A DNA stretch of 20,518 bases from a virus, in UHGV virus genome UHGV-1338495, one strand, 5' to 3'. A model generated the notes under the pieces. It saw only the letters and a list, made by a program, of their open reading frames with translations, was not told where the DNA came from and made no database searches. Made by a program: the position numbers and the translations under genes. This document shows positions 2,637 through 19,822 of the stretch, one piece after another (within the stretch, counting starts at the first letter, position 1; every line of letters starts with the position of its first letter).

Positions 2637-3243
2637 TCTCCGGCACTCCTGTCTTACTGCCTTCGCCGTTATCATGATGCACATGGCCGGAATACCGTAT
2701 CCCTGCAATAACGGCATCCGACATTGTGAACAGTCCCTGAGATTTCCCCGTACCCTCAAGCGCGAAATTACCCTTAACATGCAGGTTCTTATCCACCGTC
2801 ACATTGCCCGTAAAGGTGGCTTCCGGCGTATCCACCCGCATCCCCTCGTCGGCGTAAATCTCCAGCATTTTGCATGTCACAATAATGCGGCCATCCTTTG
2901 TTAACCGTATCCGGTGCCCCTCATGGTGATACACCCCCGTATCTCCGGCTGTGAGTCCGGTCGGGCGGCTGCGCCGGTCTTCCACCACAAGCACCACAGT
3001 CTGATCCCGCTGTCCGCCCAGACAGGCAAAAAAGGTTTCCGCACCCGGCAGGGGAACGCTGATCTGCCCGTACTGCTGGGGACGCTCCACATCATCAAAG
3101 GTTTCGCCGTCCATGCCGGTGAGCTGCACATTCTGCATTTTCAGTTCGTCATGTGTGCCGGTCAGAACGCCCCGGCCAAACAACAGGCGAATACCGCGCG
3201 TTACCGGGGCAATCAGGCGGCTGAACACTTCATCATTCATCAA
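2629..3243 (-). CDS. Baseplate assembly protein V / central spike (Mu gp45-like)
   Basis: 204-aa ORF between the hub (gpD-like) gene and the gp46-like gene. The C-terminus is Gly/His-rich (…SGHVHHDNGEGSKTG), consistent with a spike-tip domain. Confidence 0.65.
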   Translation of the reverse strand: MMNDEVFSRLIAPVTRGIRLLFGRGVLTGTHDELKMQNVQLTGMDGETFDDVERPQQYGQISVPLPGAETFFACLGGQRDQTVVLVVEDRRSRPTGLTAGDTGVYHHEGHRIRLTKDGRIIVTCKMLEIYADEGMRVDTPEATFTGNVTVDKNLHVKGNFALEGTGKSQGLFTMSDAVIAGIRYSGHVHHDNGEGSKTGVPENG

Positions 3244-14748: not shown

Positions 14749-15747
14749 TTAATCAATTTGTCCTTCCAGCACCTCAAGCATTCCGCCCCGGATATCCGAT
14801 TTCAGCTTATCCATATTGATAACCCGGTAAGCATTCACAATCACATCCAGTTTGTCGGGCTGACGTTTCAGACTGTACGGTGCATTAACGGCAATCTGCA
14901 CACTGCCATCCTTATTTTCCACGATATACATCAGATTTTTGTGCCGTTTGTCCCACAGCACCGCTTTTGGCTTTGCCAGCATTGCCGGTAAGCGCCCGAA
15001 GTCCTCTGGCATCAGGGCGATGCCGTCATTCTGATGTTTCACACTGTCTGCATGGAGCACATTTTTACCGCTCATCGCCAGCAGGCGGGCCGGTGGCGTT
15101 CCCGTCCGGCTTTCCACTGCCTGCGCAATGCTTTCAGTCATAAAGCCCAGCGTGCGGATATCGTTACCACCTCGCCGGGTCTGCATGATGTTTTTTGCCC
15201 AGATGCGGAACGCCAGCTGCCGCTCCGGGCTGTTGTTCATCTCCTGAACCACCATTTCCCGTAACGCCGGGCTTTTCACCTCGATCAGTTTGCGGATCAG
15301 CGCCTGGTCTGTGCCGAACGCTGCCGAGCCGGGGTTATATGACCAGCCCACATCCGGTGTCATGGTTCTGGTGCCATCTGAATATGTGGTCACCGGCATT
15401 TCTCTGACTTCTCCGGTCTGTTTATCCACGCCAGCCTCAACATTGCGGGTGGAGAGATGATCCTCACCGGATGAAACGGATAACCCCATTGCATCCAGAC
15501 GAGCCTGAGACAATGGCCGCACACGGCAGCGGCAGTTCCAGCCATTAGGTGGGTAGTGTGTTTTCCAGAACGGATCGTCATAGCGGAATACCAGACCGTT
15601 AAGGGCGGAATGCGACGGGCGGGTACGGCTGTCCATGACCGCCACATACTGCCAGAACGGATGCGTGTCCGTGTTGTTCATCATCTGCGTGTAACGCCCG
15701 GCATTGTAAGCCACACGGGTGTTCACGTTGTAAATCAGCGCCAGACG
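14749..15747 (-). CDS. Head morphogenesis protein, MuF family (Mu gp30-like); 5' end lost in the N gap
   Basis: The track fuses this with the portal across the N run. The part after the gap contains the MuF signature region …RVAYNAGRYTQMMNNTDTHPFWQYVAVMDSRTRPSHSALNGLVFRYDDPFWKTHYPPNGWNCRCRV…. Confidence 0.8.
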   Translation of the reverse strand, partial: RLALIYNVNTRVAYNAGRYTQMMNNTDTHPFWQYVAVMDSRTRPSHSALNGLVFRYDDPFWKTHYPPNGWNCRCRVRPLSQARLDAMGLSVSSGEDHLSTRNVEAGVDKQTGEVREMPVTTYSDGTRTMTPDVGWSYNPGSAAFGTDQALIRKLIEVKSPALREMVVQEMNNSPERQLAFRIWAKNIMQTRRGGNDIRTLGFMTESIAQAVESRTGTPPARLLAMSGKNVLHADSVKHQNDGIALMPEDFGRLPAMLAKPKAVLWDKRHKNLMYIVENKDGSVQIAVNAPYSLKRQPDKLDVIVNAYRVINMDKLKSDIRGGMLEVLEGQID

Positions 15748-15847
15748 NNNNNNNNNNNNNNNNNNNNNNNNNNNNNNNNNNNNNNNNNNNNNNNNNNNNN
15801 NNNNNNNNNNNNNNNNNNNNNNNNNNNNNNNNNNNNNNNNNNNNNNN
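15748..15847. other. Assembly gap (run of exactly 100 N)
   Basis: 100 consecutive N. It falls between the portal and MuF coding regions, both of which are incomplete. Confidence 0.95.
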
Positions 15848-16857
15848 CGTAAATCAGAATCCCTGATTTCCCGGCGCACCTCGTTATGCACCTCACCCAG
15901 CGAGCGCGCGCCTTTGTCTCCGGCTTCCGTGGTCAGCGTGCCGCCGAGTATTGCTTTGGAGATGGAACGCTCACCCCACGAAATCATGGTTTCAAACGGA
16001 TCGGCCTGACCGTTCGCTGCCGCCTGAAACTCCAGCGACATCCCGGCCGGGATGATCCCGCCTGTACGTCGCCCGATATCCATCACCGCCCGCATCAGGG
16101 CACTTTTCTGCTCCGGTGTTGCCCCGGACGGGTATTTCCCGACCTTCATTGGCAGGCCGTACACCTCCAGAAATTCCGCCAGATCGCGCACGGAATAGTT
16201 TTTGAAAATGAACGGCCAGATAAGCGTTCTGACAAGCCCCGTCGCACCACCGTAGCCGGTGCGTGAACGCGACTGATGCACTATCCAGCCAAAGGGCTGA
16301 AACGCCACCCCGGCATGGCTGCCGTCACGCAGCCGCAGTTCGCTCAAATCATCCGGGTTAAGGCAGAAATGCCCGCTGTCACGCCAGCGGATGGCGCGGA
16401 TGATGTGCATTTTACCGAGCATCCCGTGCTCAATTTCCATGCAGGAATAGCCCTTCAGGATGGCATCCGTGGCGTCAAACAGCATGGCATCAAACCAGTC
16501 TGCGGAATGCAGATATTCGTCGAGCATTTCCGCGTCCTTTTTCTCATTCGCGCTGGCGTTCGGTGGCGGCTCAATGCTCCATGGCACCCCCTGAATGGCA
16601 AGACGTCGCTTGCCCAGCTCCGCAAAAAGGTGGGTGTCCTTTTCTTCAATGTCAGCCGCCAGATCGGACTGGGCAATCAGATCGCCACGTTCAGCCCCGC
16701 GAAGGCACTGCGCCGCCCGGTTCGGGGTGATACCCGAGGCGGGATGCTCAACATAACGGCTGGCAATCTGCGGAATATCCAGCGCGGTACTTTGCATCTC
16801 CGGGTCAAAGGAGAAAGGTTTTCCGTCAAGATCAATTATGCGTCCCACTACCAGCAC
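15848..16857 (-). CDS. Portal protein, Mu gp29-like (DUF935-type); 3' end lost in the N gap
   Basis: About 336 aa are visible. GTG start at 16857-16855 overlaps the 3' end of the terminase gene. The N-terminal region (…GDLIAQSDLAADIEEKDTHLFAELGKRR…) matches my memory of Mu-type portals. Confidence 0.7.
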
Positions 16858-18385
16858 CCCCGATCAAATTCATGATATGCCTCATCGTCATCACGATAAC
16901 CGCCCTCCATTGCCCGCGACCGCTCCGGCAGCGCCTGACAGGCTGATTCATCCAGGATGAATCCCTCCATGTATGACGCCCGGTTTGCCATACAGAGTGC
17001 CACGGCAAAATCACCATGGCGGCGGGCGTTCGCAGCCGTTGCGTTCTGGTCCTTCGTGCGCCCCTTGTCGATTTGCGGGATACCATTCACCACCTTCACA
17101 TGGCGCAAATCATCAAGCGTGGTCTGATGGCGGGCGACGAGGATATTCTGATCTTCAAACTCGGCTTTCAGTTTTGGCATCCACTCGCCGTACCACTTCG
17201 GCGACAACATCACGCAGTCGATGATGTCCGGGCCAAAGGCCAGCAGTGCGGCTTCTGCCAGATAGCCGCCGTTACCGGTGGCGTCGAACGCCGCACCGAC
17301 CAGCGCCGGAACGCGGGTCAGGATGTACATCATCACCTGTTCCTGCTGGGCATACGGCAGGTTGCGCAGCTCCACGCGAAACACCTCGCGCTTTGCCAGG
17401 AGTTCGGTGATTTCCAGCAGCACAAAGCAGGACAGGTCACCGGTGCGGGCAAAGTCTTCCCCGAAGCTGAAGCGGGAACGGGGATTTAATTTCTCTAAAA
17501 GCGGTTTTAAATGTTCTTCACACCAGGTTAAAACTTCCGATTCACGCAGCCATGCGGCACGGCTGATGAAGTCGTCCGGGGCTTCAAACGTCAGAATCGG
17601 GATGTCACGAATCATCGCCATTTCAATAAGCGCGTGAGGAATATAGGCACCGCCGGATTTTTTCGGGATACAGCCGTATTCCTCGTCGGCATCCTCACGG
17701 GTCGGGGCGTTTTTGTAGAGATCATCACGCCATTTCTGCTCGCTTTCCGGTGACCATTCCTGATCGGTGACGTAACAGATACGACGGTACAGCCCGTCCG
17801 CAATGGCATCATCCAGGGTTATGCGGTGGACGCTGTAATCCTTGCGCCCCTCGCGGGCTTCCTGAATGTACTGATTAAACAGATTATCGACGCCGTTATG
17901 CGTGGAGATAATACGCACGCGCGCGCCCCACATAGTGAGCGCCATTGCCGCCTTGAGAAGCTCATCCAGTGACTCGTGGAACGCGGCTTCATCAATCACC
18001 ACATCCCCCTGAAGACCGCGCAGGTTTGACGGACGGGAAGACAATGCCTGAATTTTGAATCCACTGTTCGGAAAGCGGATCATGTAGGTCAGAATTTCTT
18101 CTTTTTTATCCCGATCCCAGAANNNNNNNNNNNNNNNNNNNNNNNNNNNNNNNNNNNNNNNNNNNNNNNNNNNNNNNNNNNNNNNNNNNNNNNNNNNNNN
18201 NNNNNNNNNNNNNNNNNNNNNNCAAACCAGCGGGCCTGATAATCCAGAAACACCGGCATATCACCGGGCAAATCAAGGCTGTCCGGCACATCCACGCCCA
18301 GCAGGGCTTTTTCACCGGACAGATCAATTTTGCGGGGAGGTGTCATTTGTATCAGTGAAGGAGACTTTTCTTTGGCTTTGTTCAT
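16848..18385 (-). CDS. Terminase large subunit, Mu gp28-like; interrupted by a 100-N gap
   Basis: ATG at 18385-18383 opens a 54-aa stretch that runs into the gap. On the other side the 411-aa track ORF frame stays open upstream into the Ns (…FWDRDKKEEILTYMIRFPNSG…). The two halves are in different apparent frames, as expected if the true gap length is not 100. Confidence 0.75.
18123..18222. other. Assembly gap (run of exactly 100 N)
   Basis: 100 consecutive N inside the terminase large subunit gene. Confidence 0.95.
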
Positions 18386-18633
18386 CAGGCTTTACCTGTC
18401 AGAATGCTTTTGATTCGGAACTCAAGCTCTTCAGTCATCACGTCCACGCCACTCAACTCATCAGTGACAGCCCCTGCCAGCAGCGAATGCAGTTGTTCCA
18501 GGGATATTTCCCCGGCAATGCTGAGTTCAGTCAACTCACGACACGCTTTTATGGTTTCAGGAGGTAACTGTGTTGCAAGACTGAATGCCTTCTGATGAGC
18601 ACTACTCATCAGTGAGCGGTTATCTGTTACCAC
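18385..18633 (-). CDS. Small protein sharing its C-terminal ~30 aa with the upstream gp27-like protein
   Basis: 82-aa ORF with GTG start preceded by AGGAGGTG. Its TGA stop overlaps the terminase ATG (TGATG). C-terminus …AVTDELSGVDVMTEELEFRIKSILTGKA. Confidence 0.5.
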   Translation of the reverse strand: MVTDNRSLMSSAHQKAFSLATQLPPETIKACRELTELSIAGEISLEQLHSLLAGAVTDELSGVDVMTEELEFRIKSILTGKA

Positions 18634-18643
18634 GATTCACCTC

Positions 18644-19225
18644 CTACGCCTTACCAAGCAGCATCTGCCTGATACGGAATTCTATCTGCTCGCTCATGCC
18701 ATCCACGCCGCGCAACTCGTCGGTGACGGCGTTCGCCATCTCTTCAGCAAATGCGGCCCGGATTTCTTTTTCACGCTTAATGCTGCGCTCGGCGGCACTT
18801 TCCGCACGCTGTGCCGACAGGAGGATGTCCTTAATAAGGCGCATATCCACATCGCTGTCGCTGTTCAGGGATTCGGTGGCGGCACGCAGACGGCGGTACA
18901 TCAGGGCACGGGACATCTCCAGAATCAGTGCCGTGGTTTCACCGGTCGGCTTATCCCCCAGTTCGGCCATCATGGCTTTTGTCTGCTCGCGTAAATCACG
19001 CAGATTACGGGCAATCAGCTCATTACGGGAGGCTTCCCGGCTGATGGCCGCCGGTGAAAGCTGCTGCTCTTCCGGCAGGCCTGCCTCACGGATCAGACGG
19101 TTGATTTCCTCGCGGATCTGGACCTGCGTCAGGCGTTTTTCACGCAGCATTTCCAGCAGCGGCTTACGGATGCTGTCGGGGAGCAAATCCACCTTGCGTA
19201 CACGGCCACGCGTCGGCTTATCCAT
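18644..19225 (-). CDS. Terminase small subunit candidate, Mu gp27-like (DUF3486-type)
   Basis: 193-aa ORF upstream of the terminase large subunit gene. The basic N-terminus (MDKPTRGRVRKVDLLPDSIRKPLLEMLREKRLTQVQI…) is typical of the family as I recall it. Confidence 0.55.
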   Translation of the reverse strand: MDKPTRGRVRKVDLLPDSIRKPLLEMLREKRLTQVQIREEINRLIREAGLPEEQQLSPAAISREASRNELIARNLRDLREQTKAMMAELGDKPTGETTALILEMSRALMYRRLRAATESLNSDSDVDMRLIKDILLSAQRAESAAERSIKREKEIRAAFAEEMANAVTDELRGVDGMSEQIEFRIRQMLLGKA

Positions 19226-19227
19226 CG

Positions 19228-19518
19228 TTACCCCCTTGCGCGTGGTTTCTTCACACCCGGAACAGTGGCACGACCTTCCGCCACATCCTGACCCCGGCCG
19301 GTCAGTTCAGCGATGAAATAACCGTTAACAAGCGTGCGCTTACGCACCAGTCCCTGCTCAGCAAGCCAGGCAATGTGGGTGTGAACGGTGTCGCGGGACA
19401 CGCGGTGGCCGTAATCATCCAGGCAGTCCTGAAGCACGGATTCGCCCAGTTCGCCGTTGTAATCCGCCAGCGACCGCAGAATGACAAGACGCTGATCTTC
19501 AGTAATGAAATCACTCAT
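19228..19518 (-). CDS. Small putative winged-helix DNA-binding protein (Mu gp26 position)
   Basis: 96-aa ORF. Start ATG overlaps the upstream stop (ATGAGTGA). It has an HTH-like segment (…VSRDTVHTHIAWLAEQGLV…) and a basic C-terminus. Confidence 0.45.
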   Translation of the reverse strand: MSDFITEDQRLVILRSLADYNGELGESVLQDCLDDYGHRVSRDTVHTHIAWLAEQGLVRKRTLVNGYFIAELTGRGQDVAEGRATVPGVKKPRARG

Positions 19519-19822
19519 TGTGTTTTTTCCTTACAGCCTGCTCCAGCAGCAGTTCGTTCTGGTGGGAGACGGATTTCAGGGTGGCATTGGTGGCCTTAAG
19601 CTCACCGCGCAGGGTGGTGATTTCGATATTGAGTCTGTTCACCTCCTGCTGCGTGGGCAGGCCGGAAATCCGGCTCTCCACCCGCTCAACCCGGTCGGAG
19701 AGTTTTTCAAAGGCCTCGCGGGGGACAAAGGTTTTGCGCATCAGCGCCATAAAGATCCCCCCGGCCGTGGCTGTTGCCGACAGGATCGGCACGACATAAT
19801 CTTTAACGATGCTGACCCACAT
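19511..19822 (-). CDS. Membrane-anchored coiled-coil protein (DUF2730-like; Mu gp25 position)
   Basis: 103-aa ORF with one N-terminal hydrophobic helix (IVKDYVVPILSATATAGGIFMALM) followed by a charged, heptad-like region. Confidence 0.5.
   Translation of the reverse strand: MWVSIVKDYVVPILSATATAGGIFMALMRKTFVPREAFEKLSDRVERVESRISGLPTQQEVNRLNIEITTLRGELKATNATLKSVSHQNELLLEQAVRKKHNE

Follow-up and report, generated by a model that had tools for sequence, protein, structure and literature searches.

A chimeric small open reading frame carrying a diverged gp27 tail at the gp27/terL junction of an Escherichia coli Mu-like prophage

The virus genome UHGV-1338495 (20,518 nucleotides; "the window" refers to this whole stretch of DNA) contains the packaging segment of the late operon of an Escherichia coli Mu-like prophage, in which a small open reading frame (ORF) of 82 codons, here called orf82, lies between gp27, the gene for the predicted small terminase subunit (TerS) of the Mu type, and terL, the gene for the large terminase subunit (TerL). 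We find that orf82 is a chimera, in which an orphan module (codons 1-56) is joined to the final ~27 codons of a diverged gp27 allele. The explanation that we favor, with a probability of roughly 55%, is that orf82 is a predicted-translated, lineage-restricted product of recombination that is kept mainly for its coupling to terL. It is thus most likely an instructive case of phage mosaicism and not a new packaging factor.

Every gene in the segment is on the minus strand, and the order is gp27, orf82, terL, portal, and MuF. An earlier reading of this DNA from its letters alone (the sequence-only reading) had stated that Mu itself has no gene between 27 and 28, and this is correct: only 7 nucleotides separate them. 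The features of the junction are as follows.

18644-19225, minus strand: gp27, Mu-type small terminase subunit, 193 residues (PF11985, E=3e-33; phrog_426 "terminase small subunit", E=9e-55)
18644-18739, minus strand: tail A, the final 31 codons of gp27 and the stop, MANAVTDELRGVDGMSEQIEFRIRQMLLGKA (76.8 bits against a hidden Markov model, HMM, of the gp27 tail)
18638-18645, minus strand: Shine-Dalgarno (SD) sequence of orf82, AGGAGGTG, overlapping the gp27 stop TAG (seen in the sequence; duplex with the 16S 3' end, -11.5 kcal/mol)
18385-18633, minus strand: orf82, chimeric small ORF, 82 residues, GTG start (member of phrog_30922; RefSeq hypothetical protein WP_000255659.1)
18466-18633, minus strand: orphan N-terminal module, orf82 codons 1-56, three predicted helices (homology to residues 1-60 of orf67/P0132)
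18385-18480, minus strand: tail B, the final 31 codons of orf82 and the stop, LAGAVTDELSGVDVMTEELEFRIKSILTGKA (derived from a diverged gp27 allele)
18383-18387, minus strand: TGATG, overlap of the orf82 stop and the terL start (TGA 18385-18387, ATG 18383-18385, one base in common)
16848-18385, minus strand: terL, large terminase subunit (the full-length orthologue of locus L002, 554 residues, matches phrog_2 "terminase large subunit", E=6e-43)

The chimeric nature of orf82 follows from three comparisons: only residues 50-82 align to gp27, residues 1-56 align to the tail-less orf67/P0132, and the sequence GGTAAAGCCTGATGAA at the junction with terL is common to orf82 and to the insert-free locus L003. 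In BLASTP, the alignment between the two proteins of the window is confined to orf82 52-82 and gp27 163-193 (20 of 31 residues identical, 26 of 31 positive, E=1e-12), and hhalign of the two families recovers only orf82 50-82 with gp27 161-193 (probability 96%). The sequence-only reading was therefore right that the small ORF shares the gp27-like C-terminal tail and that the remainder of the two proteins is unrelated; in the 150 nucleotides upstream of the tails, identity is 31%, which is the random level. Its figure of about 70% for the identity of the tails as DNA was slightly too high, since 62 of 96 nucleotides (65%) are identical, and 20 of the 34 differences fall at third codon positions. 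Synonymous divergence (pS) between tail A and tail B is 0.79, near saturation, so the copies are old, diverged as coding sequence, and belong to separate gp27 lineages rather than to a recent in situ duplication. An assembly artefact or recent tandem duplication is ruled out by this value together with the recurrence of the orf82 structure in 25 complete genomes and 8 IMG/VR contigs, which upholds the earlier suggestion of an old module exchange. Tail B has more in common with the gp27 tail of insert-free L003 (74 of 96 nucleotides, 77%) than with tail A, and the L003 tail is itself mixed: its 5' half is A-like (42/48), and its 3' half is closer to B (38/48) than to A (32/48), a further sign of repeated exchange in this short stretch.

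These comparisons bear on the proposal that orf82 is a truncated paralogue, produced by tandem duplication of the 3' part of gp27 in situ, with an N-terminal half that has diverged beyond recognition. The two tails do lie 259 nucleotides apart in direct orientation, with the ORF exactly where a tandem copy would be expected. However, the pS of the tails far exceeds the ~0.1 measured for gp27 and terL among these prophages, tail B is nearer to the tail of another prophage type than to its supposed parent, and the N-terminal module exists independently in orf67. In situ duplication is on these grounds very improbable, and a truncated gp27 paralogue was dropped as a candidate because neither hhalign nor the DNA comparison gave any similarity upstream of the tail.

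Alignment of the junction from several prophages resolves four architectures in a background that is otherwise 91-99% identical. In the insert-free type (L003), the gp27 tail is followed by GGTAAAGCCTGATGAA, which leads into terL. The window type runs from gp27 with tail A through TAG, the SD sequence, and orf82, which ends in tail B, to the identical GGTAAAGCCTGATGAA junction. The L009 type has the same gp27, SD sequence, and first codons, followed by a small ORF of 67 residues (orf67), 120 nucleotides, and a terL with a different 5' end. The product of orf67 is homologous to that of orf82 up to residue ~56 (...QLQTLVAHA vs ...QLHSLLAGA), after which it ends with QSSRRGKT and the tail is absent. 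The fourth type, found in E. coli CI5 (L004, at about 3101-3133) and in L016, corresponds to the L009 type after a deletion that reduced the small ORF to a 9-codon stub (ATGGCAACAGACTGGTTTAGTTATGAGTAA), whose stop lies just past the terL ATG. The strong SD sequence of orf82 recurs upstream of orf67 (L009) and of the 9-codon mini-ORF (CI5), and an Ala-x-Ala spot marks the joint (AGA in orf82, AHA in orf67, and ANA in gp27).

Other Mu-like phages have unrelated inserts of 200-630 nucleotides at the same boundary, and these varied inserts, together with the four architectures, indicate that it is a hot spot for insertion and recombination. The inserts were seen in enterobacterial Mu-like loci from IMG/VR (L035, L036, L042-L045, L055, L056, L062, L064, and L068) and have small mechanical ORFs between gp27 and terL; several of them have a short ORF whose end meets or overlaps the terL start, and none has a gp27-like tail. 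Exhaustive HMMER searches of 1.84 billion representative proteins with the N-terminal module returned only the orf82/orf67 family and two spurious repeat proteins, and word-indexed searches likewise returned only that family. Among the loci and databases searched, no donor gp27 allele with tail B was seen, an absence that is not conclusive because the databases are clustered. The orf67 form makes up one protein cluster and was found neither in complete E. coli genomes nor in the IMG/VR scan.

The distribution of orf82 is narrow. When 5,426 complete E. coli genomes were examined, 230 matched the region, 25 of them with the whole insert (94-99.9% identity) and ~200 on the gp27 side only, so that orf82 is missing from ~90% of the closest E. 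coli prophages. In insert-free relatives (L001, L003, L022-L030, and L073), the gp27 stop directly overlaps the terL ATG. The nearest records in phage collections, LC727881.1 and LC727895.1 (L001), are Shiga toxin (Stx)-converting phages with a Mu-like phage inserted, and their copy of the region is without orf82. In a large protein database, the family was represented only by E. coli members (79-98% identity) and by a few disrupted versions, which come from assemblies of metagenomes or reads, and orf82 had no match in 185,579 species-representative genomes (one per species). Among the loci fetched, which include 80 Mu-like loci from IMG/VR with gp27 identities of 35%-100%, the second tail copy is confined to those with orf82. 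Conservation in related prophages, which the sequence-only reading had named as a test, is thus partial: homologues exist and the frame is kept, but in one narrow lineage only.

Selection was assessed in 20 loci that provide 11 orf82 DNA haplotypes. All of the haplotypes have 82 codons and, despite 48 segregating sites, none has a stop or an indel. The mean ratio of nonsynonymous to synonymous polymorphism (pN/pS) is 0.48 for the whole of orf82, 0.44 for codons 2-15, 0.67 for codons 16-52, and 0.36 for the tail; the values for the same prophages are 0.09 for terL and 0.01 for both gp27 as a whole and its tail. Loci that each encode a different orf82 protein share one and the same gp27 protein (WP_000360580.1). 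The first 15 codons of orf82 are highly variable, one variant has L70P in the terminal helix, and the last residue varies among A, S, and V. The strong purifying selection expected of an essential interface is not seen in tail B (0.36 vs 0.01 for the gp27 tail), and the orf82 tail shows the signature of relaxed constraint. The same picture emerges from profiles, as real gp27 tails score 73-78 bits with the gp27-tail HMM and tail B about half of that (32-47 bits). Three residues that never vary in gp27 alignments ranging from Mu to Salmonella are replaced in tail B (R172S, G176V, and S178T). Relative to the gp27 tail motif, ELRGxDG(M/I)SExLExxIxxxLLGKA, tail B retains E, L, D, E, E, I, L, G, and K/A, with R to S, G to V, S to T, and L to T changed.

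What the genuine tail does is suggested by other packaging systems. In lambda and P22, the C terminus of TerS binds the N terminus of TerL (PMC9611059). The gp27 tail is plausibly a TerL-docking element as well, because it is conserved, sits at the extreme C terminus, is predicted to form a loop and a helix, and has this precedent. No other part of gp27 is as well conserved among Mu-like phages, from Mu itself to prophages of E. coli and Salmonella. In loci L076-L091, where gp27 is only 35-39% identical, the tail has a comparable end (G-(V/L)-S...amphipathic helix...G-I-(E/A)) and the gp27 stop overlaps terL by 1-14 nucleotides, which indicates that the arrangement is ancient in this terminase family. 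On the side of the putative partner, the first ~15-17 residues of TerL (window 18335-18385, terL codons 1-17) are hypervariable and mosaic between terL genes that are otherwise 97-99% identical, with pN/pS above 1 at few sites, and the same region is affected in L003, L004, L009, and L032-L069. A conserved (P/E)PR(K/L/Q)IDL motif follows this stretch and would be a candidate contact for the TerS tail if docking occurs as in lambda and P22. In the literature covered by our searches, we found nothing on orf82 or on a Mu gp27-gp28 interaction, and no test of a TerL-tail interaction for any Mu-type terminase.

Structure models allow the two endings to be compared. An AlphaFold2 (AF2) model of orf82, made with a small family alignment (mean predicted local distance difference test score, pLDDT, of 70), has helices at 5-22, 25-39, and 45-60, a low-confidence loop at 61-67, and a terminal helix at 68-79. 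The AF2 model of gp27 is poor (pLDDT 55), with helices at 17-29, 34-47, 58-89, 95-120, and 128-171, a loop at 172-178, and a helix at 179-189, and was set aside for fold comparison for that reason. A loop and terminal helix are thus the predicted ending of both models, with low confidence for gp27. The N-terminal helix-turn-helix (HTH)-like region and long oligomerization helices of gp27 were not found in the orf82 model, which has no match to a TerS or HTH fold; a Foldseek search of BFVD and the PDB gave no match at E<=0.001. A sequence search of the PDB with the gp27 profile gave nothing significant.

If the gp27 tail docks onto TerL, its copy could do so too, and the sequence-only reading had proposed on this basis that the 82-residue protein is a second partner, adaptor, or competitor. 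Stated fully, orf82 would be a selected second partner of TerL (an adaptor, a chaperone, or a competitor of gp27), produced in stoichiometric amounts with TerL through coupling and modulating terminase assembly or nuclease activity. This proposal can draw on the conservation of the tail within gp27 and the lambda/P22 precedent, on the strong SD sequence, the frame that is open in 11 haplotypes, and the pN/pS below 1, on the predicted compact three-helix N-domain followed by a loop and terminal helix like the ending predicted for gp27, and on the retention of most of the invariant tail residues. However, its distribution shows that orf82 is not needed for packaging, because it is missing from ~90% of the closest prophages and from other sampled Mu-like phages. 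The tail is under far weaker constraint than the genuine tail of the same genomes, it no longer has R172, G176, and S178, a proline falls within the helix of one variant, real gp27 tails all reach about twice its HMM score, and recombination accounts for the anatomy of the junction without invoking a function. A selected second partner is thus an unlikely explanation, and this part of the proposal made from the sequence is not supported. A bolder version, which we regard as doubtful, is that orf82 is a domesticated mimic of the TerS tail, with the docking helix carried on an unrelated three-helix domain, made one-for-one with TerL, and occupying the TerS site; it could, for example, be a holding factor that silences the TerL nuclease until gp27-pac complexes displace it. 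If true, domain shuffling would here have given rise to a class of terminase regulator, encoded by the phage, that has not been described before.

The sequence-only reading had noted for orf82 a strong SD sequence and a stop that overlaps the terminase ATG, and both were confirmed: the SD sequence of orf82 pairs with the 16S 3' end at -11.5 kcal/mol, compared with -11.8 kcal/mol for that of gp27, and the TGATG is as listed above. The orf82 SD sequence is 5 nucleotides upstream of a start codon that is GTG in the window and ATG in several relatives. In contrast, terL has a weak SD sequence (within 20 nucleotides upstream) in the window (-3.8 kcal/mol), in L003 (-3.7), and in CI5 (-2.2). All 11 orf82 haplotypes retain the SD sequence and a stop/start overlap with terL, as TGATG or ATGA, and a TGATG-type overlap joins gp27 to terL in L003 and L022-L030. 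In three of the four architectures, the terL ATG is overlapped by the end of an ORF with a strong SD sequence (gp27, orf82, or the 9-codon stub), and the CI5 stub may be an independent arrangement for translational coupling. By these measures, orf82 looks like a coupled leader: it has a strong upstream SD sequence and start, its stop lies over the downstream ATG, and terL is without an effective SD sequence of its own.

These signals must be set against the view that orf82 is a neutral recombination scar, a recent junction ORF without a selected role either as a protein or for coupling, which is open only for lack of time. A pN/pS of ~0.5, the high variability of the first 15 codons, and the narrow lineage are all in keeping with a scar, as are database members with in-frame deletions or frameshifts (P0002, P0003, P0010, and P0011). 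The open frame fits as well, given that a neutral ORF would have remained free of stops with the appreciable probability of ~0.17; for this reason we dropped the open frame alone as a proof of selection. However, the 11 haplotypes have no indels among their 48 segregating sites and keep the overlap and SD sequence throughout, the loss of upstream translation should be costly given the very weak SD sequence of terL, and the independent derivative in CI5 also retains a leader over the terL ATG. Further, the disrupted versions stem from metagenome and read-assembly contigs and may be assembly errors. These points make a neutral scar quite improbable.

In the explanation that we prefer, a recombination chimera retained mainly for coupling, orf82 would have been built from two pieces by mosaic recombination between gp27 and terL in Mu-like prophages of E. 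coli. The first ~56 codons would come from an orphan small gene that stands behind gp27 in some relatives (orf67 in L009), the final ~27 codons would derive from the 3' end of another gp27 allele that is deeply diverged, and the two would have been joined in frame at the common Ala-x-Ala spot. The gp27-derived piece would have imported the ancestral overlap of the upstream stop with the terL ATG and so preserved the native context for terL initiation. Because terL has almost no SD sequence of its own, it would need ribosomes delivered from a translated ORF upstream, which would be gp27 in insert-free prophages, orf82 in the window, and the 9-codon stub in CI5. Selection would then hold orf82 open and translated up to the terL overlap while constraining its amino-acid sequence weakly, and the gp27-like tail would be mainly a relic of a docking tail, with weak or absent binding to TerL, and not a second essential partner.

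Several observations weigh against this account. L009 has a 120-nucleotide gap before terL and no obvious coupling, so terL can be expressed without an overlap. The pN/pS of orf82 lies, if only marginally, below 1 (for the most divergent pairs, binomial p 0.01-0.19), and codons 16-52 are nearly invariant, so that some selection at the protein level is possible. Tail B retains ~10 of the 13 invariant positions of the gp27 tail and could still bind TerL. The events may also have run in the opposite direction, with orf67, by far the rarer of the two, as the derived form. The open frame itself is weak evidence either way.

The gp27 protein is 57% identical to that of Mu and scores 116 bits with PF11985 (cut-off 28); for orf82, the profile search returned 0 Pfam families at E<=1 and thus no full-length match to PF11985. 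In PHROGs, orf82 matches phrog_30922 (function unassigned) over its full length (positions 1-82 of 82, E=7.6e-57), and orf67 matches it at positions 2-55 only. No Pfam family matched the full-length terL orthologue. A run of 100 Ns at 18123-18222 interrupts terL and, by comparison with L002 and L007, represents 227 nucleotides; by the same comparison, a second run of 100 Ns at 15748-15847 represents ~905 nucleotides, covering the portal 3' end and the MuF 5' end. Both runs are placeholders and not length-preserving masks, and the second causes ORF calling to fuse portal and MuF into a false ORF of 702 residues (14749-16857). A scan of 18000-19600 found no promoter-like site, and terminator-like sites in it were not above chance; being without a promoter or terminator of its own, the orf82 insert is not an autonomous moron.

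Upstream of gp27, the gene order is a TraR/DksA zinc-finger protein, a DUF2730 protein (Mu gp25-like), and a gp26-like protein (19228-19518, minus strand). The last, of the "VpaChn25_0724 family", has weak winged-helix/HTH matches in Pfam (HTH_12, HTH_20, and ArsR-type; E 3e-4 to 1e-2), all below gathering scores, and in one Mu record (AF083977.1), a feature that lies under the match to gp26/gp27 bears the label "winged HTH domain-containing protein". A putative DNA-binding partner directly upstream of the small terminase could bear on pac recognition. In one Logan contig (P0013, 291 residues), the gp26-like ORF reads into gp27 (…KKPRARGVTMDKPTRG…); this gp26-gp27 fusion is from one assembly and is probably due to a lost stop or a sequencing error. 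On the plus strand, an ORF of 243 residues at 18585-19316, antisense to gp27 and to the start of orf82, is serine/arginine-rich, as is typical of the shadow frame of a GC-rich gene, and shows no sign of being a gene.

The junction provides a stepwise view of how mosaic recombination can build a new small ORF, with four forms surviving, and the series suggests that the need for terL coupling limits which recombinants survive. It also indirectly marks the C-terminal tail of gp27 as the most conserved element of an uncharacterized Mu-type small terminase, and probably as the one that contacts TerL. Should the tail copy bind TerL, orf82 would offer a natural competitor peptide with which to map the contact. 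In annotation, the label gp27-tail chimera can be given to phrog_30922 and to the WP_000255659 "hypothetical protein" family.

Among known systems, the closest is the Mu gp27 family (PF11985, phrog_426; predicted small terminase). The final ~27-33 residues of orf82 are homologous to this family and occupy the same place, directly upstream of terL and overlapping it. However, the other 50 residues are without homology to it, the N-terminal HTH-like region and long helices are lacking, and the tail deviates at three invariant positions under roughly 30-fold weaker constraint. The TerL-binding C-terminal moieties of lambda gpNu1 and P22 gp3 appear similar to the gp27 tail in position and predicted form (a flexible loop and a terminal helix), but there is no sequence relationship. 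We know of no free-standing small protein from lambda/P22-type systems that has only such a docking tail. Small proteins that interfere with or re-target the interactions of terminase subunits do occur in satellites, where packaging redirectors (TerS and Ppi of Staphylococcus aureus pathogenicity islands, SaPI, and Rpp of phage-inducible chromosomal islands, PICI) act against the helper phage. They could serve as a functional analogy for a competitor role, but orf82 is encoded by a phage in its own packaging operon, and the satellite proteins are unrelated to it in sequence.

In its translation signals, orf82 resembles the coupled terS-terL pairs and leader ORFs of phage late operons, with a strong upstream SD sequence, a TGATG/ATGA overlap, and a weak terL SD sequence. 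Unlike the usual terS-terL coupling, the coupling ORF is not TerS itself but a chimera with a copy of the TerS tail, so that the terL initiation region is kept by duplicating part of a gene. It is also like the ORFs of mosaic junctions and "moron" insertions in lying at a hot spot between conserved genes, in being present or absent among near-identical prophages, and in being an orphan of one host species, but differs from classic morons in having no promoter or terminator of its own and in being fused in frame to a fragment of a neighboring structural gene. Phage mosaicism, junction ORFs, and terS-terL coupling are already known, and the ORF family is catalogued but undescribed; the new findings are that it is a chimera, built from an orphan module and a gp27 tail, and that a set of junction intermediates has survived.

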